Source of the DNA: a virus
Taxonomy: Duplodnaviria > Heunggongvirae > Uroviricota > Caudoviricetes
DNA length: 9,431 nt
IMG/VR virus record: IMGVR_UViG_2778261165_000011
Location: 1-9,431 of that record
Direction: 5' to 3' (one strand)
In this document: piece by piece, positions 1 through 9,431 of the stretch
How the letters are laid out: each line of letters begins with the position of its first letter
Numbering within the stretch: the first letter of the stretch is position 1
Position numbers and translations under genes: made by a program
The notes under the pieces: model-generated
The model's input: only the letters and a program-made list of their open reading frames with translations
Told to the model about the DNA's origin: nothing
Databases searched by the model: none

Positions 1-232
1 GCTTGCGGGCGTTCATGCTCAGAAACAAGGTTGGGACAAGCACTTCCAGGCTAACACAGTCAGAAATCGAAACGTACTCTCAACAGTTCGCTTAGGCATG
101 GAAGTTTTGCGGCATTCTGGCTACACAATAACAAGGGAAGACTCACTCGTGGCTGCAACCCTGCTTACTCAAAATCTATTCACACATGGTTACGTTTTGG
201 GGAAATTATGAGGGGATCTCTCAGCGCTAAAC

Positions 233-763
233 ATGAAAAAAGATTCGTATCCTTATTTGATTTGCATGACAGTTTCAGGCCTGATCTTTATTTTCCTTTT
301 CTTCTGGTGGCGGGCAGATATTTACAGGGTCACGTTTCTTAATCAGAGTATATCCCACTATTACATTCTGTTTAGCATGGGAATAGCTTTTCTGTTATCT
401 CTGTTTTGGGTTAAGAAGGGGATAGTAAAACAAAGCGGCTGGAAGAGTCTGTCAGCATACCTTAAGGTTTATGCAGGGATGTGCATATTTGCTGGATTTT
501 TTCTGATTATACCCCTTACAACACTAACTTATTTTTTGCCTGGAGAGACATCGTCTTATGTTGCACCGTATCGGTATACTTCCGGTAGTTCAAAAAGTTG
601 TTCTGGAGCTGAGGTGGATGACCCCGATCTACATGAGAATATTCGCATTTGCTATCCGTATGGCAATTATGAGTACGATAATATTATCTATGTTGAAAAG
701 AAAATTAATACATTAGGTGCGGTAGTAACATATGCACAGACCGCGCGTGATGATACTGAATGA
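233..763 (+). CDS. Hypothetical integral membrane protein: three predicted N-terminal TM helices plus a ~70-aa Cys-containing soluble tail
   Basis: 176-aa ORF in AT-rich DNA, on the opposite strand to the surrounding leftward operon. Hydrophobic stretches PYLICMTVSGLIFIFLFFWW, YYILFSMGIAFLLSLFWV and VYAGMCIFAGFFLIIPLTTLTYFL. Followed by a hairpin at 798-821. No strong Shine-Dalgarno before the ATG, which lowers confidence. No lambda counterpart recalled. Confidence 0.45.
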   Translation: MKKDSYPYLICMTVSGLIFIFLFFWWRADIYRVTFLNQSISHYYILFSMGIAFLLSLFWVKKGIVKQSGWKSLSAYLKVYAGMCIFAGFFLIIPLTTLTYFLPGETSSYVAPYRYTSGSSKSCSGAEVDDPDLHENIRICYPYGNYEYDNIIYVEKKINTLGAVVTYAQTARDDTE

Positions 764-797
764 GATAGTATATAGCGGGCAAGTTTTAGTTAATTTA

Positions 798-835
798 TCG
801 AGGTAATATAATTTACCTCGACTCGTTTATTCTGG
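798..835 (+). terminator. Candidate intrinsic terminator after the 233-763 gene
   Basis: 9-bp inverted repeat tcgaggtaa (798-806) / ttacctcga (813-821) with a 6-nt loop, followed by T-rich ctcgtttattctgg. Confidence 0.4.
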
Positions 836-973
836 TATTAATATTTCGCTTTACGATCGATTTTTATCTGATGATATCATGCGGTTTTCATATACTGACT
901 TACTGTCTTTTCTCCGTTAGCGATTTTCTCCTGCTCAGCGATGATTTTATCTTTGGCTTCTAGTTAATTTCGC

Positions 974-1195
974 TCACTTCGAACCTCTCTGTTTACTGAT
1001 AAGCTCCAGATCCTCCTGGCAACTTGCACAAGTCCGACAACCCTGAACGACCAGGCGTCTTCGTTCATCTATCGGATCGCCACACTCACAACAATGAGTG
1101 GCAGATATAGCCTGGTGGTTCAGGCGGCGCATTTTTATTGCTGTGTTGCGCTGTAATTCTTCAATTTCTGATGCTGAATCAATGATGTCTGCCAT
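974..1195 (-). CDS. TraR/DksA-family C4 zinc-finger protein (lambda orf73-like)
   Basis: 73-aa ORF with two CxxC pairs (CCECGDPIDERRR ... CRTCASC), the signature of TraR/DksA-type zinc fingers. Size and position (left of the orf61/63/60a cluster) match lambda orf73 from memory. Confidence 0.7.
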   Translation of the reverse strand: MADIIDSASEIEELQRNTAIKMRRLNHQAISATHCCECGDPIDERRRLVVQGCRTCASCQEDLELISKQRGSK

Positions 1196-1244
1196 CTTCC
1201 ATTAATCCCTGAATTGTTGGTTAATACGCTTGAGGGTGAATGCG

Positions 1245-1271
1245 AATAATAAAAAAGGAGCCTGTAGCTCC
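1245..1271 (-). terminator. Candidate intrinsic terminator between the 1294-1605 ORF and the TraR-like ORF
   Basis: Minus-strand sense: hairpin GGAGC-uacag-GCUCC (1271 down to 1257) followed directly by UUUUUUAUUAUU (1256 down to 1245). Confidence 0.5.
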
Positions 1272-1293
1272 CTGATGATTTTGCTTTTCATGT

Positions 1294-1605
1294 TCATCGT
1301 TCCTTAAAGACGCCGTTTAACATGCCGATTGCTAGGCTTAAATGAGTCGGTGTGAATCCCATCAGCGTTACCGTTTCGCGGTGCTTCTTCAGTACGCTAC
1401 GGCAAATGTCATCGACGTTTTTATCCGGAAACTGCTGTCTGGCTTTTTTGATTTCAGAATTAGCCTGACGGGCAATGCTGCGAAGGGCGTTTTCCTGCTG
1501 AGGTGTCACTGAACAAGTCCCATGTCGGCAAGCATAAGCACACAGAATATGAAGCCCGCTGCCAGAAAAATGCATTCCGTGGTTGTCATACCTGGTCTCT
1601 CTCAT
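1294..1605 (-). CDS. Hypothetical protein at the position of lambda orf61
   Basis: 103-aa ORF whose start overlaps the end of the orf63-like ORF by 20 nt, the arrangement recalled for lambda orf61/orf63. It is longer than the 61 aa expected from lambda. Confidence 0.45.
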   Translation of the reverse strand: MRETRYDNHGMHFSGSGLHILCAYACRHGTCSVTPQQENALRSIARQANSEIKKARQQFPDKNVDDICRSVLKKHRETVTLMGFTPTHLSLAIGMLNGVFKER

Positions 1606-1777
1606 CTGCTTCTGCTTTCGCCACCATCATTTCCAGCTTTTGTGAAAGGGATGCGGCTAACGTATGAAATTCTTCGTCTGTTTCTACTGGTATTGGCACA
1701 AACCTGACTCCAATTTGAGCGAGGCTATGTGCCATCTCGATACTCGTTCTTAACTCAACGGGAGATGCTTTGTGCAT
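1586..1777 (-). CDS. Small early protein, lambda orf63-like
   Basis: 63-aa ORF at the position and length expected for lambda orf63 relative to exo; overlaps both neighbours as in lambda. Confidence 0.5.
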   Translation of the reverse strand: MHKASPVELRTSIEMAHSLAQIGVRFVPIPVETDEEFHTLAASLSQKLEMMVAKAEADERDQV

Positions 1778-1938
1778 ACAGCTCCCCGTTTATTATTTAT
1801 CTCCTCAGCCAGCCGCTGTGCTTTCAGGGGATTTCGGATAACAGAAAGGCCGGGAAATACCCAGCCTCGCTTCGTAACGGAGTAGACGAAAGTGATCGTG
1901 CCTACGCGGATATTATCGTGAGGATGTTTCATCGCCAT
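1750..1938 (-). CDS. Small early protein, lambda orf60a-like
   Basis: 62-aa ORF immediately downstream of exo on the minus strand. Using the third codon (M at 1932) gives the 60-aa form with an ATGA-type overlap with the exo stop. Confidence 0.45.
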
Positions 1939-2609
1939 TGCTCCCCAAATACAAAACCAATTTCAGCCAGTGCCTCGTCCATTTTTTCGATGAACTCCGG
2001 CACCATCTCGTCAAAACTCGCTATATACTTTTCATTCCGCTCAATCACGACATAATGCAGGCCTTCACGCTTCATACGCGGGTCATAGTTGGCAAAGTAC
2101 CAGGCATCTTTTCGCGTCACCCACATGCTGTACTGCACCTGGGCCATGTAAGCCGACTTTATGGCCTCGAAACCACCGAGCCGGAATTTCATGAAATCCC
2201 GGGAGGTAAACGGGCATTTCAGCTCAAGGCCATTGCCGTCACTGCATAAACCATCGGGAGAGCAGGCGGTGCGCATACTTTCGTCGCGATAGATGATCGG
2301 GGATTCAATAACATTTACGCCGGAAGTGAACTCAAACAGGGTTCTGGCGTCGTTCTCGTACTGTTTTCCCCAGGCCAGCGCTTTAGCGTTAACTTCCGGA
2401 GCCACACCGGTGCAAACCTCAGCCAGCAGGGTGTGGAAGTAGGACATTTTCATGTCAGGCCACTTCTTTCCTGATCGGGGCTTTGCTATCACGTTGTGAA
2501 CTTCTGAAGCGGTGATGACGCCGAGCCGTAATTTGTGCCATGCATCATCCCCCTGTTCGACAGCTCTCACGTCGATCCCGGTACGCTGCAGGATAATGTC
2601 CGGTGTCAT
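1929..2609 (-). CDS. exo: Lambda exonuclease (Red alpha), 5'-3' dsDNA exonuclease
   Basis: 226-aa ORF, near-identical over its full length to recalled lambda Exo ([65 protein letters not shown]... FVFGEQWR). Start overlaps the bet stop. Confidence 0.95.
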
Positions 2610-3391
2610 GCTGCCACCTTCTGCTCAGTGGCTTTCTGTTTCAGGAATCCAAGAGCTTTCACTGCTTCGGCCTGTGTCAGTTCTGACGATGCGCGAATGT
2701 CGCGGCGAAATATCTGGGAACAGAGCGGCAATAAGTCGTCATCCCATGTTTTATCCAGGGCGATCAGCAGAGTGTTAATCTCCTGCATGGTTTCATCGTT
2801 AACCGGAGTGATGTCGCGTTCCGGCTGACGTTCTGCAGTGTATGCAGTATTTTCGACAATGCGCTCGGCTTCATCCTTGTCATAGATACCAGCAAATCCG
2901 AAGGCCAGACGGGCACACTGAATCATGGCTTTATGCCGTAACATCCGTTTGGGATGCGACTGCCACGGTCCGGTGATTTCTCTGCCTTCGCGGGTTTTGA
3001 ATGGTTCGCGGCGGCATTCATCCATCCACTCGGTAACGCAGATCGGATGATTACGGTCCTTGCGGTAAATCCGGCATGTACAGGATTCATTGTCCTGCTC
3101 AAAGTCCATGCCATCAAACTGCTGGTTTTCATTGATGATGCGGGACCAGCCATCAACGCCCACCACCGGAACGATGCCATTCTGCTTATCAGGAAAGGCG
3201 TAAATTTCTTTCGTCCACGGATTAAGGCCGTACTGGTTGGCAACGATCAGTAATGCGATGAACTGCGCATCGCTGGCATCACCTTTAAATGCCGTCTGGC
3301 GAAGAGTGGTGATCAGTTCCTGTGGGTCGACAGAATCCATGCCGACACGTTCAGCCAGCTTCCCAGCCAGCGTTGCGAGTGCTGTACTCAT
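2606..3391 (-). CDS. bet: Red beta single-strand annealing protein
   Basis: 261-aa ORF matching recalled lambda Bet ([86 protein letters not shown]...). Confidence 0.95.
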
Positions 3392-3396
3392 CCGTT

Positions 3397-3693
3397 TTAT
3401 ACCTCTGAATCAATATCAACCTGGTGGTGAGCAATGGTTTCAACCATGTACCGGATGTGTTCTGCCATGCGCTCCTGAAACTCAACATCGTCATCAAACG
3501 CACGGGTAATGGCTTTTTTGCTGGCCCCGTGGCGTTGCAAATGATCGATGCATAGCGATTCAAACAGGTGCTGGGGCAGGCCTTTTTCCATGTCGTCTGC
3601 CAGTTCTGCCTCTTTCTCTTCACGGGCGATCTGCTGGTAGTGACGCGCCCAGCTCTGAGCCTCAAGACGATCCTGAATGTAATAAGCGTTCAT
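3397..3693 (-). CDS. gam: Gam, RecBCD inhibitor (98-aa GamS form)
   Basis: 98-aa ORF matching recalled lambda GamS ([21 protein letters not shown]...[10 protein letters not shown]). The longer GamL frame is not intact here (see findings). Confidence 0.9.
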
Positions 3694-3768
3694 GGCTGAA
3701 CTCCTGAAAATGGCTGTGAAAATATCGCCCGCGAAATGCCAGGCTGATTAGGAAAACAGGAAAGGGGG

Positions 3769-3912
3769 TTAGTGAATGCTTTTGCTTGATCTCAGTTTCT
3801 GTATTAATATCCATTTTTTATAAGCGTCGACGGCCTCACGAAACATCTTTTCATCGCCAATAAAAGTGGCGATAGTGAATTTAGTCTGGATAGCCATAAT
3901 TGTTTGATCCAT
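3769..3912 (-). CDS. kil: Kil, host cell-division inhibitor
   Basis: 47-aa ORF from the ATG at 3912 ([47 protein letters not shown]), matching recalled lambda Kil. The 89-aa ORF in the supplied track is an upstream in-frame extension through cIII. Confidence 0.8.
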
Positions 3913-4045
3913 TTTTCGGGACTCCTGGCTGATTAAGTATGTCGATAAGGCGTTTCCATCCGTCACGTAATTTACGGGGGATTCGTTCAAGTAAAGATTC
4001 GGAAGGGCAGCCAGCAACAGGCCACCCTGCAATGGCATATTGCAT
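3881..4045 (-). CDS. cIII: cIII, inhibitor of FtsH-mediated cII degradation
   Basis: Hand translation of the minus strand from the ATG at 4045 gives MQYAIAGWPVAGCPSESLLERIPRKLRDG..., ending ...YGYPD* at 3881; 54 aa, matching recalled lambda cIII. Below the size cut-off of the supplied ORF track. Confidence 0.8.
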   Translation of the reverse strand: MQYAIAGWPVAGCPSESLLERIPRKLRDGWKRLIDILNQPGVPKNGSNNYGYPD

Positions 4046-4117
4046 GGTGTGCTCCTTATTTATACATAACGAAAAACGCCTCGAGTGAAGCGTAATTGGT
4101 ATGCGGTAACGCCGCGC

Positions 4118-4486
4118 TCAGGCGGCTTTGATAGTCATATCATCTGGATCAAATATTCCTGATGTATCGATATCGGTAATTCTTATTCCTTCGCTACCAT
4201 CCATTGGAGGCCATCCTTCCTGACCATTTCCATCATTCCAGTCGAACTCACACACAACACCATATGCATTTAAGTCGCTTGAAATTGCTATAAGCAGAGC
4301 ATGTTGCGCCAGCATGATTAATACAGCATTTAATACAGAGCCGTGTTTATTGAGTCGGTATTCAGAGTCTGACCAGAAATTATTAATCTGGTGAAGTTTT
4401 TCCTCTGTCATTACGTCATGGTCGATTTCAATTTCTATTGATGCTTTCCAGTCGTAATTAATGATGTATTTTTTGATGTTTGACAT
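4118..4486 (-). CDS. ea10: Ea10-like early protein
   Basis: 122-aa ORF at exactly the position and length of lambda ea10 relative to cIII/kil/gam/bet/exo. GAGGA Shine-Dalgarno upstream. Confidence 0.7.
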   Translation of the reverse strand: MSNIKKYIINYDWKASIEIEIDHDVMTEEKLHQINNFWSDSEYRLNKHGSVLNAVLIMLAQHALLIAISSDLNAYGVVCEFDWNDGNGQEGWPPMDGSEGIRITDIDTSGIFDPDDMTIKAA

Positions 4487-4503
4487 CTATTCATATCCTC
4501 ACA

Positions 4504-4532
4504 GATAAAAAATCGCCCTCACACTGGAGGGC
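4504..4532 (-). terminator. Intrinsic terminator upstream of ea10 (tL2-like)
   Basis: Minus-strand sense: stem GCCCUC-cagugu-GAGGGC (4532 down to 4515) followed by GAUUUUUUAU (4514 down to 4505). Position corresponds to the lambda tL2 region. Confidence 0.5.
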
Positions 4533-4668
4533 AAAGAAGATTTCCAATAATCAGAACAAGTCGGCTCCTGTTTAGTTACGAGCGACATTGCTCCGTGTAT
4601 TCACTCGTTGGAATGAATACACAGTGCAGTGTTTATTCTGTTATTTATGCCAAAAATAAAGGCCACTA

Positions 4669-4766
4669 TCAGGCAGCTTTGTTGTTCTGTTTACCAAGTT
4701 CTCTGACAATCATTGCCGTCGTTCGTATTGCCCACACCATTGATTCTTATCAATAGTCGCAGTCAT
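4669..4766 (-). pseudogene. ral: ral (restriction alleviation) remnant with internal frameshifting deletion
   Basis: From the ATG at 4766 the frame reads MTATIDKNQWCGQ then YERRQ*. A different frame reads (M)VWAIRTTAMIVRELGKQNNKAA* ending at 4669. These match the N- and C-termini of recalled lambda Ral (66 aa); ATG-to-stop is only 98 nt. Confidence 0.6.
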
Positions 4767-4836
4767 ACGGATAGTCCTGGTATTGTTCCATCACATCCTG
4801 AGGATGCTCTTCGAACTCTTCAAATTCTTCTTCCAT
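4750..4836 (-). CDS. 28-aa acidic peptide (lambda orf28-like)
   Basis: ATG at 4836 preceded by GAGGTGA Shine-Dalgarno; encodes MEEEFEEFEEHPQDVMEQYQDYPYDCDY*. Its 3' end overlaps the ral ATG, the same arrangement as lambda orf28/ral. Confidence 0.4.
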   Translation of the reverse strand: MEEEFEEFEEHPQDVMEQYQDYPYDCDY

Positions 4837-4894
4837 ATCTCACCTCAAATAAGTGGTTTGCTGCCTAATTTCATTTTCTGGCGACCAACACAAG

Positions 4895-5167
4895 TCATCT
4901 TGCTGTCAGCTGTTTGGATTTCCTGTAGCCTGCCGCGTAAATGGCTACATTTGGAAGACAAGTTGAGCCTTCATATTTTCTGGTCAACGTTGTCAGTGTT
5001 ATTACTTCTGCTCTCATTACTGGTTTGCGTTTGCATTGTAAGACCACTCGTGAAGGGGTTGGCCTGTGTAGTTTGTCAGAGCTGATCGCCTCCTGACTTT
5101 GCAGGTTTGCACGACGAGCTCTACGGCGAGAAGCTGCGGTGCCTTTAAATTCTGTTTTTCTGGACAT
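4895..5167 (-). CDS. N: N-like transcription antiterminator (non-lambda type)
   Basis: 90 aa from the internal ATG at 5167, preceded by GGAGG at ~6-nt spacing. N-terminal arginine-rich motif MSRKTEFKGTAASRRRARRANLQ. First gene downstream of the predicted PL and nutL. The supplied 114-aa ORF is an N-terminal over-extension. Confidence 0.65.
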   Translation of the reverse strand: MSRKTEFKGTAASRRRARRANLQSQEAISSDKLHRPTPSRVVLQCKRKPVMRAEVITLTTLTRKYEGSTCLPNVAIYAAGYRKSKQLTAR

Positions 5168-5265
5168 AGATTCCTCCCGAATAAACTTTGGCGATGCAAT
5201 CTCGAAGCTCCTCCTGAGCCGGTTGCTTCGGCATTGCATCCCACAGCTTATGTGGTTGGGTGGTC

Positions 5266-5311
5266 TGGCTTTTCAGCCACGTAGTCGAGTGTTCGACGTT
5301 GTTTAAAGAGC
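5266..5311 (-). promoter_or_regulatory. nutL candidate (boxA-like plus boxB-like hairpin)
   Basis: Minus-strand sense: GGCUCUUUAAA (boxA-like, 5311-5301), then hairpin GUCGA-acac-UCGAC, then UGGC-UGAAAA-GCCA (5279-5266). The last element parallels the hairpin in nutR. Confidence 0.5.
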
Positions 5312-5349
5312 CTGCCAGTCTGTTCCATTTGGCTTCCAGCGTCCTGCTG

Positions 5350-5386
5350 ATGATTAAATAGTACGATATGTACTTTATCTGGTCAA
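5350..5386 (-). promoter_or_regulatory. PL candidate promoter
   Basis: Minus-strand TTGACC (-35, 5386-5381), 17-nt spacer, TACTAT (-10, 5363-5358); about 40 nt upstream of nutL. Confidence 0.5.
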
Positions 5387-5570
5387 TACGATTTGTTCTA
5401 TTGAGGGGTGGTTTTTTACAACGCTTTGTATTTAATAGTGTTGTTTTTTAGCGTGGGTGTATTGCCTCGGCGATGTAGGGAGAGATCAGAATTGCGTTGT
5501 TTAGTGAGTTGTATCTATTAATTTTAAAATAAATACAATTGGTTATGTGTTTTTTTGGGGGCGTTAGGCA

Positions 5571-5595
5571 AAGAAAACCCGGCGCGGAAGCCGGG
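5571..5595 (-). terminator. Intrinsic terminator ending the cI-side leftward operon
   Basis: Stem cccggc (5578-5583) / gccggg (5590-5595) with loop gcggaa. On the minus strand the hairpin is followed by UUUUCUUU; it lies 5 nt after the stop of the 177-aa ORF. A T-run on the plus side (5606-5611) suggests weak bidirectional activity. Confidence 0.6.
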
Positions 5596-5600
5596 TTGTC

Positions 5601-6134
5601 TCATTTTTTAGTTTGCTTTGGATTCGGTTTGTCTCTTCTTCCAATTATAAACACGCTAGTTAAAGCAACTAACTCAGCACCAAGAAGCCCGGTAGCCCAG
5701 CCATAAGCCTCGTGCTGAATCATCTTGTAAGCAATTCCTGCGAAAACAAAGACAGAAGTCATCGCAAAGATCTGTCCGAGTCGATCTCGCCAAATTGCTC
5801 CCCTCTGTCCTGCTTTGTAATACTCGTGTCTGTGTTTTTGCTCAGCCTTAGCCATGTCCATTATTTCGCGAGCGAATCCTGGAGATATTCTTTCGTACTT
5901 AGCTAATTCGTCAGCGTCTGGGAGTGGCCCTGATCTAGTGTGAGTCACCTGCATCATGATGCCAGCTAGATCTGGCCTGTCCATGAGGCGCTCAAGAACT
6001 TGAGGGTTCTTTGCGACCTCATTTATAAGCAGTTCGGTTTTACCGTCTTGAACTCGCCCTAACGGAGTTGGTTGGTTAACAAGATTTCTCGGGGCGGCGG
6101 TTTGAAGCTTTCTTTGGGATTTTTTTCTGCTCAT
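5601..6134 (-). CDS. Hypothetical membrane protein with two C-terminal TM helices, at the position of lambda rex
   Basis: 177-aa ORF: basic N-terminus (MSRKKSQRKLQTAAPR), charged central region (ELAKYERISPGFAREIMDMAKAEQKHRHEYYKAGQ), then IFAMTSVFVFAGIAYKMI and WATGLLGAELVALTSVFIIG. No similarity to recalled RexA or RexB. Weak Shine-Dalgarno; possibly translationally coupled. Confidence 0.55.
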   Translation of the reverse strand: MSRKKSQRKLQTAAPRNLVNQPTPLGRVQDGKTELLINEVAKNPQVLERLMDRPDLAGIMMQVTHTRSGPLPDADELAKYERISPGFAREIMDMAKAEQKHRHEYYKAGQRGAIWRDRLGQIFAMTSVFVFAGIAYKMIQHEAYGWATGLLGAELVALTSVFIIGRRDKPNPKQTKK

Positions 6135-6297
6135 TATCAGTTACAGCGTCTCTAACGTAACTACCTACCTTAACCCAATCTGAGTTGATAAGGTCGATGT
6201 CTGTAGCATTTGAATGATACTCGCTGTAGCTACCTGCTGGGCAAAGGTCAAGGATAGAGCCCATAGCGCTGAAAAAGTGCTTTGCAGATTTTTTCAT
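6076..6297 (-). CDS. Hypothetical 73-aa soluble protein, first gene of the cassette downstream of cI
   Basis: ATG at 6297 preceded by AGGA about 8 nt upstream; MKKSAKHFFSAMGSILDLCPAGSYSEYHSNATDIDLINSDWVKVGSYVRDAVTDNEQKKIPKKASNRRPEKSC. Its 3' end overlaps the 177-aa ORF start by 59 nt in another frame. Confidence 0.4.
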   Translation of the reverse strand: MKKSAKHFFSAMGSILDLCPAGSYSEYHSNATDIDLINSDWVKVGSYVRDAVTDNEQKKIPKKASNRRPEKSC

Positions 6298-6485
6298 GTG
6301 GGGTGTCCTATATGTTGTTTACTCTAATTTGAGTAATTGAAGTTTACGCAAAACCTAGCTTTCAGCAAGCAATACAGCACAAAAAAATCATGTAAATTTG
6401 CGTCTATTTTTATCTAACGGAAAAATGCTCAACAACTTTAGAGAAAAAATAGCAATACCAAATCAAACCAATTGCTGCTTCGCCT

Positions 6486-7145
6486 CTACCCAAACGTCTC
6501 TTCAGGCCACTGACTAGCGATAACTTTCCCCACAACGGAACAACTCTCATTGCATGGGATCATTGGGTATTGTGGGTTTAGTGGCTGTAGAAACACCTGA
6601 CCGCTATCCCTGATCAGTTTCTTGAAGGTAAACTCATCACCACCAAGTCTGGCTATGCAGAAATCGCCGGGCTCAACAGCTTGCTCTGGGTCAACCAGAA
6701 TTAACATCCCGTCAGGAAAACTAGGTTTGGAACCTGTTGGTGCGGTCATTGAGTTACCTTCAACCTCAAGCCAGAATGCAGAGTCACTGGCTTTTTTGGT
6801 TGTGCTTACCAATCTCTCCGCATCGCCTTTGGTAAAGGTTCTGAGTTCTGGAGAGAACATCCCAGCCTGAACATGAGAAAAAACAGGGTACTCATATTGT
6901 TTTTTAACTGGGGCCGATGAGTATTCGCCAACAGGTGAAAATGTCCCGTCGTGGTTGAATGATATGTTATCAATACCAAGGTATTTAAACACCACACCAA
7001 TATCACTAAGAGATGGATGACGAGATCCGCGCAACCAGTGTCCAATTCCACCCTGCGTCATACCTAGCTCTTCGGCTAACTTCTCTTGAGTTATGCCGAG
7101 CTCTTTCATTCTGGATCTAGCCAGTTCATACCATTTCATTTTCAT
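6486..7145 (-). CDS. cI: cI-family prophage repressor: non-lambda HTH N-terminal domain fused to a lambda-type S24 autocleavage C-terminal domain
   Basis: C-terminal ~135 aa ([29 protein letters not shown]...[12 protein letters not shown]) nearly identical to recalled lambda cI. N-terminus ([40 protein letters not shown]...) is a different HTH. Start placed at ATG 7145 (or 7139); the 256-aa track ORF over-extends into the operator region. Confidence 0.9.
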
Positions 7146-7256
7146 GTCCTTATTATTACGCTCTGTACTGGAACCATCCATGCACAATGTGTATTTTTTG
7201 CTTGTGTTTAATGAGTACATATTGTATTTTTTATTTGTGGTTACTATGGAGGGCAT
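7146..7256. promoter_or_regulatory. OR region with divergent PRM/PR promoters and candidate operators
   Basis: 111-bp gap between divergent cI and cro. Contains two ~20-bp direct repeats, aatgtgtattttttgcttgtg (~7186-7206) and tattgtattttttatttgtgg (~7220-7240), plus TACTAT and a GGAGGG Shine-Dalgarno just before the cro ATG. Exact operator boundaries not resolved. Confidence 0.5.
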
Positions 7257-7472
7257 ATGAGCAACCTACGAAAATATCGAGAGTCACTGAATATCTCTCA
7301 AACAACACTTGCTAAGGCAGTTGGATGCACACAGGGAGCTATCGGACATTGGGAATCTGGTCGTCGCTTCCCAGACCTTAAAACATGCCGTGCTCTTGTT
7401 GCGTGTCTAAACAAGTTAGGCGCAAAAGTAAGTCTTGATGATGTGTTCCCGCCGGAGCACAAAGCTGCTTAA
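7257..7472 (+). CDS. cro: Cro-like HTH repressor
   Basis: 71-aa ORF divergent from cI with GGAGGG Shine-Dalgarno; [28 protein letters not shown]. Recognition-helix motif TQG.IGHW is shared with the cI N-terminal domain. Confidence 0.8.
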
Positions 7473-7482
7473 TAAGCGGAGC

Positions 7483-7528
7483 CGCTCTTTGTAATAACGG
7501 ACATTCGTCCTACGTCGCTGAAAAGCGA
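7483..7528 (+). promoter_or_regulatory. nutR candidate (boxA plus boxB-like hairpin)
   Basis: CGCTCTTTG (7483-7491, boxA consensus), then hairpin GGAC-attc-GTCC, then TCGC-TGAAAA-GCGA (7515-7528). Located between cro and cII as in lambda. Confidence 0.5.
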
Positions 7529-7613
7529 GTCCCAAGATATCTGACCAACTAAGGCCATATGCGTTTCCACGCATACCTTTCAACTAACTATTCACTATTG
7601 GAAATCTTAAGAA

Positions 7614-7910
7614 ATGGAACGAACAAGTTACAGCAAACTATCACAGCGTGACGTTGATCGCGCAGAAACAGATTTACTCATCAACCTATCAACGCTTACC
7701 CAGCGCGGTCTGGCAAAGATGATTGGCTGTCATGAATCGAAGATAAGCAGAACGGACTGGAGATTTATTGCTTCGGTCTTGTGTGCTTTCGGAATGGCAT
7801 CAGACATCAGTCCGATTAGCAGGGCTTTTAAGTATGCGCTTGCTGAAATCACAAAGAAAAAATCCCCGGCCGCCACCGAGGATTTTAAGCAAATTGATAT
7901 GCAATTCTGA
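7614..7910 (+). CDS. cII: cII transcriptional activator
   Basis: 98-aa ORF. C-terminal part (...ITKKKSPAATEDFKQIDMQF) resembles recalled lambda cII (...TNKKRPAATERSEQIQMEF). Positioned between cro and O, overlapped by the oop terminator. Confidence 0.8.
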   Translation: MERTSYSKLSQRDVDRAETDLLINLSTLTQRGLAKMIGCHESKISRTDWRFIASVLCAFGMASDISPISRAFKYALAEITKKKSPAATEDFKQIDMQF

Positions 7911-7932
7911 GGGAATTACTGGATCAATCTAC
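7857..7932 (-). ncRNA. oop: oop antisense RNA
   Basis: Minus-strand sense begins GUAGAUUGAUCCAGUAAUUCCCUCAGAA, close to recalled lambda oop 5' end GUUGAUAGAUCCAGUAAUGACCUCAGAA. Ends in hairpin CCUCGG-uggcgg-CCGGGG followed by AUUUUUU, overlapping the cII 3' end. Confidence 0.55.
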
Positions 7933-7942
7933 AGGGGGCATT

Positions 7943-8838
7943 ATGACAAATACAGCCAAAATACTCAACTTCTGCAGAGGTAACTTTGCCAAACAGGAGC
8001 GTAATGTGGCAGATCTCGATGATGGTTACGCCAGACTATCAAATATGCTGCTTGAGGCTTATTCAGGCGCAGATCTGACCAAGCGACAGTTTAAAGTGCT
8101 GCTTGCCATTCTGCGTAAAACCTATGGGTGGAATAAACCAATGGACAGAATCACCGATTCTCAACTTAGCGAGATTACAAAGTTACCTGTCAAACGGTGC
8201 AATGAAGCCAAGTTAGAACTCGTCAGAATGAATATTATCAAGCAGCAAGGCGGCATGTTTGGACCAAATAAAAACATCTCAGAATGGTGTATCCCTCAAA
8301 ACGAGGGAAAATCCCCTAAAACGAGGGATAAAACATCCCTCAAATTGGGGGATTGCTATCCCTCAAAACAGGGGGACACAAAAGACACTATTACAAAAGA
8401 AAAAAGAAAAGATTATTCGTCAGAGAATTCTGGCGAATCCTCTGACCAGCCAGAAAACGACCTTTCTGCGGTGAAACCGGATGCTGCAATTCAGAGCGGC
8501 AGCAAGTGGGGGACAGCAGAAGACCTGACCGCCGCAGAGTGGATGTTTGACATGGTGAAGACTATCGCACCATCAGCCAGAAAACCGAATTTTGCTGGGT
8601 GGGCTAACGATATCCGCCTGATGCGTGAACGTGACGGACGTAACCACCGCGATATGTGTGTGCTGTTCCGCTGGGCCTGCCAGGACAACTTCTGGTCCGG
8701 TAATGTGCTGAGCCCGGCCAAACTCCGCGACAAGTGGACCCAGCTCGAAATCAACCGTAACAAGCAACAGGCAGTCGTGACAGCCAGCAAACCAAAACTC
8801 GACCTGACAAACACAGACTGGATTTACGGGGTGGATTT

Positions 8839-8842
<4 letters not shown>
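7943..8842 (+). CDS. O: Replication initiator O
   Basis: 299-aa ORF near-identical to recalled lambda O (MTNTAKILNF...NTDWIYGVDL); contains the iteron origin internally. Confidence 0.95.
8291..8420. repeat. ori-lambda: four ~18-bp iterons plus adjacent AT-rich region
   Basis: tccctcaaaacgaggga (8292-8308), tcccctaaaacgaggga (8312-8328), tccctcaaattggggga (8337-8353), tccctcaaaacaggggga (8359-8376), then acaaaagacactattacaaaagaaaaaagaaaagattatt. Confidence 0.85.
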
Positions 8843-9425
<583 letters not shown>

Positions 9426-9431
9426 TAGCTT

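Follow-up and report, generated by a model that had tools for sequence, protein, structure and literature searches.

RexA and RexB of phage lambda, a soluble sensor and a membrane effector expressed in the lysogen from the slot behind the cI repressor gene, are the founding example of prophage-encoded abortive infection, and their mechanism is still debated. The subject of this work is an unrelated pair of overlapping genes that occupies the same slot in a 9,431-nucleotide stretch of viral DNA (IMG/VR record IMGVR_UViG_2778261165_000011, positions 1 to 9,431; the whole stretch is called the window). The window is the early region of an Escherichia coli lambdoid prophage, and several complete genomes, that of strain SLK172 among them, match it at 100% identity over the query. 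The two open reading frames (ORFs) are named ORF73 and ORF177 and the pair is referred to as the cassette. Judged by sequence comparison, the cassette is a lysogen-associated two-gene module with a putative membrane effector, and it comes from an uncharacterised pair conserved across several phyla. The features on which the argument is built are as follows:

5601-6134, minus strand: ORF177, 177 amino acids (aa), DUF2335 membrane protein
6076-6297, minus strand: ORF73, 73 aa, small soluble partner, predicted two-helix hairpin
6341-6380, minus strand: conserved non-coding block, about 70 nt upstream of ORF73
6368-6363 and 6346-6341, minus strand: candidate sigma-70 promoter, with -35 TTGCTG, a 16-nt spacer and -10 TAAACT, identified by conservation only
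6319-6336, minus strand: hairpin TTACTC-aaatta-GAGTAA in the predicted 5' leader (-6.1 kcal/mol, z = -2.9)
6298-6485, minus strand: spacer of 188 nt between the cI stop and the ORF73 start (186-416 nt in the repressor-adjacent homologous loci)
5566-5597, minus strand: intrinsic terminator, stem 5597-5576 followed by a T-run (-18.7 kcal/mol, z = -3.0 against shuffled sequences)

Comparison with lambda showed that the cassette sits exactly at the rexA-rexB position, since lambda-homologous sequence flanks it on both sides. Window positions 6490-6896 share 94% nucleotide identity with the C-terminal domain of lambda cI, positions 5475-5597 are 87% identical to the lambda sequence directly downstream of rexB, tIMM included, and the 892 bp in between (5598-6489) stand in place of the 1404 bp that carry rexA and rexB in lambda. 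In a viral contig (L008), lambda cI itself (235 of 237 residues identical, 99%) is followed by this cassette. A preliminary description of the window had spoken of a "rexA/rexB slot", which these flanks show to be literally true. The anatomy it gave, a 73-aa soluble ORF and a 177-aa ORF with two C-terminal transmembrane helices that overlap by 59 nt with cI upstream, was borne out by the ORF list, hydropathy and domain searches.

Similarly to rexAB, the cassette lies between the same homologous flanks, on the same strand as cI and with the soluble gene ahead of the membrane gene; both pairs are presumably expressed in the lysogen. In other respects the two differ. RexA and RexB measure 279 and 144 aa versus 73 and 177 aa for the cassette proteins, to which they have no sequence relationship; RexB has 4 membrane helices, whereas ORF177 has a 2-helix hairpin; and the cassette genes overlap by 59 nt and probably have a promoter of their own upstream. 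Homology of the small partner to RexA was rejected (hhalign probability 0.1%), as was that of ORF177 to RexB (0.3%) and to P22 SieA (1.3%). SieB was covered by the Pfam scan alone, in which the SieB model matched P22 SieB but neither ORF177 nor ORF73. The lack of resemblance to RexA, RexB and SieB that the preliminary description had noted was therefore upheld in these comparisons.

ORF73 and ORF177 are both real genes. RefSeq/PGAP leaves ORF73 unannotated, yet records of the identical protein come from 815 contigs. Across ten non-redundant loci, on which all ratios of non-synonymous to synonymous variation (pN/pS) were computed, codons 1-54 of ORF73 were found under purifying selection, with a pN/pS of 0.38 in their own frame versus 1.03 and 1.15 in the other two; this confirmed the earlier reading of the 73-aa ORF as a coding gene. 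The corresponding values for ORF177 outside the overlap were 0.27 (residues 21-60), 0.24 (DUF2335 core) and 0.29 (membrane hairpin). The Shine-Dalgarno sequence of ORF73 is conserved and normally spaced, with a mean anti-Shine-Dalgarno duplex energy of -5.9 kcal/mol. ORF177 shows only weak pairing at the canonical spacing (mean -2.3 kcal/mol) and has no well-placed Shine-Dalgarno sequence, the only element of this kind lying unusually far upstream. The two genes overlap out of frame over 59 nt (6076-6134, minus strand); ORF177 is in the +1 frame relative to ORF73, its start codon lies inside ORF73, and constraint is relaxed in both frames of the overlap (pN/pS 0.72 in the ORF73 frame and 0.56 in the ORF177 frame). 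The pair was kept in all 21 fetched loci that were checked (22 with the window), the start codons being exactly 163 nt apart and the overlap 41-62 nt long.

The ORF73 protein carries the motif F-x-A-M-G-S-I-L-D-L-C-P...Y...S-D-W-x-x-V-G-x-Y-x-R-x-A, followed at residues 55-73 by a basic C-terminal tail that is poorly constrained and falls inside the overlap. Hydropathy analysis revealed no hydrophobic segment, and the AlphaFold2 (AF2) model is a two-helix hairpin of moderate confidence (predicted local distance difference test, pLDDT, 70). The sole family match is phrog_26284, of unknown function; ORF73 had no match in Pfam, NCBIfam or PADLOC, and no Pfam domain was found in ORF73 and 49 relatives, hence no recognised antitoxin or DNA-binding domain. 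When 1.84 billion representative proteins were searched with an ORF73 profile, 83 clusters of relatives were recovered, nearly all of 54-88 aa, with the consensus M...FL.G.GS.LDI.P...Y...SD...I..DW..VG..L..A.

ORF177 is a clear member of two families of unknown function, Pfam DUF2335 (PF10097) and PHROG 3996, and neither entry mentions a conserved small upstream partner. The match to DUF2335, a likeness that the preliminary description had correctly suggested, has an E-value of 1.4e-17 and a score of 63.8 bits (cut-off 25), with residues 72-121 spanning the whole 50-position model; the match to phrog_3996 ("membrane protein", moron category) has an E-value of 9e-43. The protein (isoelectric point 10.0) consists of a basic, probably disordered N-terminus, a helical cytoplasmic region, the core at 72-121, a hairpin (about 119-166) whose loop is very short, and a basic tail at the C-terminus. 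The hairpin is made of two hydrophobic segments recognised by hydropathy (about 119-140 and 144-166), and the predicted topology is N-in/C-in with nearly all of the mass in the cytoplasm. Across the family, G69, P70, P72, Y80, P85 and R102 of ORF177 are invariant or close to it. Searches of the Protein Data Bank (PDB) with both protein sequences gave chance-level matches only, and no functional work on the DUF2335 family was found in the literature searched. We take the term "DUF2335 phospholipase", which is in print, to be almost certainly a misprint for DUF2235 (the Tle1 lipases), and it was not used as evidence. Such a misprint could mislead text-mining on the family. The term is listed as a type VI secretion effector toxin domain in two sources (PMC6267618 and bioRxiv 10.1101/2023.07.16.549128).

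Inspection of the sequence ahead of ORF73 revealed a conserved block whose elements GTGCTGT, CTTGCTG and TTTTGCGTAAACTTCAATTACTCAA are shared by loci with different repressors and with 45-60% protein identity. The elements are arranged as GTGCTGT...CTTGCTG-(16 nt)-TAAACTTCAATTACTCAA, and their conservation suggests that the cassette possesses its own promoter. The leader hairpin can be formed in each homologue, as judged by eye; a covariation test covered 4 pairs, none of them compensatory. In the spacer 6298-6485, the candidate stem after cI had a z-score of -0.32 against shuffled sequences and no terminator-like site was seen on the minus strand. In the absence of a convincing terminator between cI and ORF73, read-through from PRM is plausible. 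An Rfam search returned no match inside or adjoining the cassette.

At the other end of the cassette, the statement that the pair ends at a clean terminator was right as to the strength of the signal but not as to its ownership. The terminator is, on its homology to lambda, the tIMM of the backbone flank and not a part of the cassette, and it would end cassette transcription before OL/PL. Since the predicted PL is located downstream of the cassette, the early-left transcript would exclude it. A terminator-like hairpin is also present after the DUF2335 gene in related loci.

The preliminary description had placed the cassette in the cI-downstream slot. This holds for the window, where the pair takes the rexAB position, but the cassette is not tied to that slot and is also found between tail genes. 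Homologues of both proteins co-occur in Enterobacter, Citrobacter, Kluyvera, Cronobacter, Pectobacterium and viral contigs, and at least seven different repressor types with helix-turn-helix (HTH) and S24 domains precede the cassette. In a 55%-identical lineage (L019-L021) no repressor precedes it; L019 has it inserted, with several further small ORFs behind the pair, between tail genes K and I of lambda-like type. An insertion between genes that are adjacent in related phages, which is the criterion for a moron, is thus seen both at L019 (K/I) and here (cI/tIMM). These positions point to an autonomous, horizontally mobile two-gene moron that is independent of the cI slot. The G+C content of the cassette was not distinct from that of the neighbouring genes. 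Like the morons HK97 gp15 and P22 sieA, the cassette is inserted at variable sites, encodes a membrane protein and is borne by temperate phages; those morons are single genes as against two here, and ORF177 is predicted to have most of its bulk in the cytoplasm, not in the periplasm.

A wider search indicated that the pair extends far beyond the enterobacteria. Using ORF177 as a query, tblastn detected DUF2335 genes in 24 phage records, ten of which were opened for their neighbourhood: Klebsiella RAH1, the Uetakeviruses ZX5 and BUCT711, Pseudomonas MD8, Alteromonas P24, Staphylococcus E72, Streptococcus Javan433, Lacticaseibacillus P2.4, Arthrobacter Gusanita and a Porphyromonas phage. All ten have an ORF of 65-116 aa directly upstream of the DUF2335 gene, overlapping it by 8-80 nt in nine records and, as annotated, not at all in Alteromonas P24. 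A small-protein profile built without phage sequences recognised eight of these ten upstream ORFs (20.8-71.5 bits). The sites are by integrases, after the lysin at the prophage end, by antirepressors or within tail genes, and most of the ten phages bear temperate marks (integrases, antirepressors or prophage origin). In Klebsiella phage vB_Kpn_RAH1 (L025 3784-3981), the 65-aa ORF of the ORF73 family is unannotated in the GenBank record. The small partner seems to be systematically under-annotated.

The module was defined as an ORF of about 55-115 aa with G-S-x-L-D-x-x-P...Y...D-W-x-x-V-G, immediately upstream of a DUF2335 gene and usually overlapping it; this arrangement was found in the window and in 21 of 21 close loci. 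Six remote small-protein clusters were also looked up. In four of them, one being a fusion to a Panacea domain, an intact DUF2335 gene follows closely behind; the fifth is a broken gene that joins the small domain, in frame, to the beginning of a DUF2335 domain; and the sixth, in L044, is an orphan without a DUF2335 ORF behind it. L044 belongs to the metagenome-assembled genome of an uncultured cyanobacterium, where the stand-alone small-partner gene (2504-2734) has the same neighbourhood as the Panacea fusion and an McrB-like ORF on the opposite strand takes the place of DUF2335; the small-partner gene may have been orphaned when its effector was lost. On plasmids the module is rare (6 of 72,556 records), and the one record opened was a phage-plasmid. 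Collectively, the loci compared identify the cassette as one member of a widespread module of small partner and DUF2335 protein, carried mainly by temperate phages of several phyla.

The fusion just mentioned offers a clue to the division of labour between the two proteins. In cluster P0068, from a cyanobacterial chromosome and located by kaiA, a SocA_Panacea domain (PF13274, E 1.3e-21) is followed by an ORF73-like domain, and the fusion gene shares 8 nt with the DUF2335 gene that follows it. Experiments have established proteins with a Panacea domain as antitoxins against dozens of toxin families (Kurata et al. 2022, PMC8832971); several of these PanT toxins are small, have a charged N-terminal part and membrane helices at the C-terminus, and depolarise the membrane (PMC8832971). 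The fusion therefore suggests a neutralising or specificity role for the small partner and an effector role for the DUF2335 protein. The cassette resembles PanAT in its neutraliser-first bicistronic layout, in its overlapping genes and in an effector with a charged N-terminal part and C-terminal membrane helices; it differs in that ORF73 of the window has no Panacea domain. The layout of a type II toxin-antitoxin system, a small gene adjacent to or overlapping its partner and conserved across taxa, is present, while the only antitoxin domain seen is the Panacea domain of the P0068 fusion. DUF2335 was not named among the PanT toxins in those parts of the text and supplements of the Panacea papers that were accessible.

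A Panacea gene is also found in Salmonella phage Emek (L043 14764-15637), where the gene for the Panacea (DUF4065) protein overlaps that of its partner gp16 by 62 nt at the P22 sieA position. Emek gp16 was considered as a DUF2335 protein and rejected: it is soluble, has no DUF2335 match and belongs to cluster T1. It is reported as non-toxic in E. coli (PMC8832971), and since gp16 is not a DUF2335 protein, this negative result does not bear on the DUF2335 family.

We hypothesize that the small partner restrains a membrane-acting effector and that the pair thereby gives exclusion in the lysogen, a reading to which we assign a probability of roughly 0.4. According to this model, the pair would be transcribed in the lysogen from its own conserved promoter, with a start near 6334, and probably by PRM read-through in addition, up to tIMM at about 5570. 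ORF73, with its good ribosome-binding site, would be made in excess, and ORF177, started inside ORF73 and possibly coupled to its translation, at a low level. ORF177 would insert into the inner membrane by its C-terminal hairpin, where ORF73 would bind and restrain it in the manner of an antitoxin. An infecting phage that shuts off host and prophage expression, or inactivates ORF73, could then act as the trigger, upon which ORF177 would assemble and permeabilise or depolarise the membrane. We assume that the infection would be aborted by the logic of RexAB or of the membrane-acting PanAT, though the proteins are unrelated. More tentatively, the small partner and the DUF2335 protein might form an unrecognised two-component family of membrane-acting abortive-infection or toxin-antitoxin systems, borne by temperate phages whose hosts are Proteobacteria, Firmicutes and Actinobacteria, matched by similar pairs in phages of Bacteroidetes and in cyanobacterial chromosomes, and serving as a functional substitute for RexAB in lambda relatives. 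A defence role of the cassette is plausible on these grounds, and we regard the cassette as a good candidate for a toxin-antitoxin-like or phage-exclusion module.

A number of observations weigh against this proposal. No toxicity, partner-binding or phage-exclusion experiment was found for any DUF2335 protein in the literature searched. The notion of a defence module put forward in the preliminary description gained nothing from PADLOC-DB v2, which has no model matching either protein, and the structure searches suggested there were equally unproductive, Foldseek against the PDB giving nothing below E 0.8 for the models of ORF73 and ORF177. The AF2 model of ORF177 is itself poor (all-helical, pLDDT 57). 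Typical type II antitoxins carry a DNA-binding domain, but none can be recognised in ORF73. Only a single lineage showed the Panacea fusion, and a scan of species-representative genomes for more fusions yielded one locus, a stand-alone small gene with no DUF2335 ORF after it. The hexamers of the candidate promoter are weak (3/6 and 4/6) and were not reported by a consensus scan. The membrane-embedded Glu154 was considered as a family-wide ion-conducting residue and rejected, because it is conserved only in the enterobacterial subfamily.

Other functions would fit part of the same evidence. The pair could be a toxin-antitoxin or addiction system, or a lysogen fitness factor, with no part in phage defence, for example by stabilising the prophage or altering the physiology of the host membrane. 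The toxin-antitoxin-like operon layout would suit such a role, as would the Panacea-fused version in a chromosomal, non-prophage context, the existence of other chromosomal copies and the presence on phage-plasmids, which need stabilisation. We nevertheless consider it rather unlikely, given the rarity of the module on plasmids, its strong association with temperate phages at the usual positions of exclusion genes and its direct replacement of rexAB. Another possibility is non-suicidal superinfection exclusion, in which ORF177 would block DNA entry from the inner membrane, as P22 SieA, T4 Imm and HK97 gp15 do, and ORF73 would be a chaperone or regulator. The rexAB and sieA-type positions are indeed classical homes of exclusion genes, and a membrane protein at lysogen-expressed moron positions is what this explanation calls for. 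On the other hand, ORF177 is predicted to be almost entirely cytoplasmic with a periplasmic loop of a few residues, which would leave little surface for an incoming ejection apparatus, and the spread of the module over phages of Gram-negative and Gram-positive hosts argues against dependence on a host-specific entry factor. With no relation to SieA, and a Panacea link that fits a toxin better, entry exclusion is distinctly unlikely.

That the pair serves the lytic cycle or the decision circuit of the phage itself, as a holin-like lysis timer or a membrane-anchored regulator of induction, appears more improbable still. Class II holins are proteins of about 65-95 aa with two helices, an N-in/C-in topology, a charged C-terminus and a gene by the endolysin. 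ORF177 shares the two-helix hairpin and basic C-terminal tail with them, but at 177 aa it is twice their size, has a 118-aa N-terminal cytoplasmic part and is not in a lysis cassette. The pair does lie just after the lysin in Gram-positive phages, and it adjoins antirepressor genes in Klebsiella phage RAH1 and the Uetakeviruses; sites after the lysin are, however, also classical moron sites at prophage ends, and in the window the pair is far from the lysis genes, in the immunity region between cI and tIMM and upstream of PL, where early-left and late operon transcription would not reach it. The last explanation, that ORF73 is not a gene or is joined to ORF177 by a programmed frameshift so that the locus holds a single gene, has been largely refuted, and we believe it to be almost certainly wrong. 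It could draw on the omission of ORF73 by PGAP, on an A7 run in the overlap and on the one distant cluster with the small domain in frame with the start of DUF2335. The A7 run is absent from most homologues and both start codons are invariant, including the separate ATG of ORF177; a fusion by frameshift is thus unsupported, and programmed frameshift or transcriptional slippage at the run was rejected. Purifying selection acts on ORF73 in its own frame only, its start codon and Shine-Dalgarno sequence are conserved, its relatives in 83 clusters are stand-alone proteins of 54-88 aa, and the in-frame fusion gene is itself broken.

With regard to RexAB, the window provides a case in which rexAB has been naturally replaced by an unrelated pair of the same layout, even behind lambda's own cI. 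Such a replacement makes for a clean comparative system, as the cassettes can be swapped in an otherwise identical lysogen. PF10097, a widespread family of unknown function, is given a testable context for the first time, and the DUF2335 family is shown to have an obligate small partner, one that usually escapes automatic annotation (as in RefSeq here and in the RAH1 record). Should the module prove to serve defence or toxin-antitoxin functions, it would add a multi-phylum family absent from PADLOC-DB v2; should it be non-toxic and non-protective, the rex slot would also house cargo of other kinds.

The remaining features of the window describe the prophage region in which the cassette is set:

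Early-left genes, minus strand: exo, bet, gam, kil, cIII, a DUF2528 gene, ral and N
Beyond N, minus strand, in this order: a PL/OL-like site (about 5358-5386), the terminator, ORF177/ORF73 and the cI-type repressor
6486-7181 (longest ORF to 7256), minus strand: cI-type repressor with HTH_3 and Peptidase_S24 domains
Genes on the plus strand: cro, cII, O and P

The repressor is a mosaic, in which the C-terminal domain is the one with 94% nucleotide identity to lambda cI and the N-terminal DNA-binding domain is different. PGAP places its start at 7181 (231 aa), while the longest ORF begins at 7256, immediately next to the cro start codon (7257); the real start may lie further downstream, near MKMKWYEL. 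On the minus strand, TTGACC-17-TACTAT (5386-5358) resembles a promoter and overlaps the palindrome AGTACGATATGTACT (5360-5374), whose half-site AGTACATAT was found again at 7214 (7214-7222), between cI and cro. These sites probably serve this immunity type as PL/OL (5358-5386) and as an OR operator (7214-7222).

The SLK172 prophage, otherwise identical, has an IS3-family insertion sequence between cro and cII (L001 8074-9287), of which the window has no copy, and an IS100 element further right. An ORF of 176 aa with several hydrophobic segments (233-763, plus strand) runs counter to the early-left operon and is flanked by the int/xis end and by a TraR/DksA-like gene. It had no match in NCBIfam or PADLOC, is annotated by PGAP as a 200-aa "hypothetical protein" and may be a further moron. 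The Rfam model Lambda_thermo (RF01804), the thermoregulator RNA of lambda cIII, matched positions 4000-4058 on the minus strand with 88.5 bits, against a gathering score of 50.

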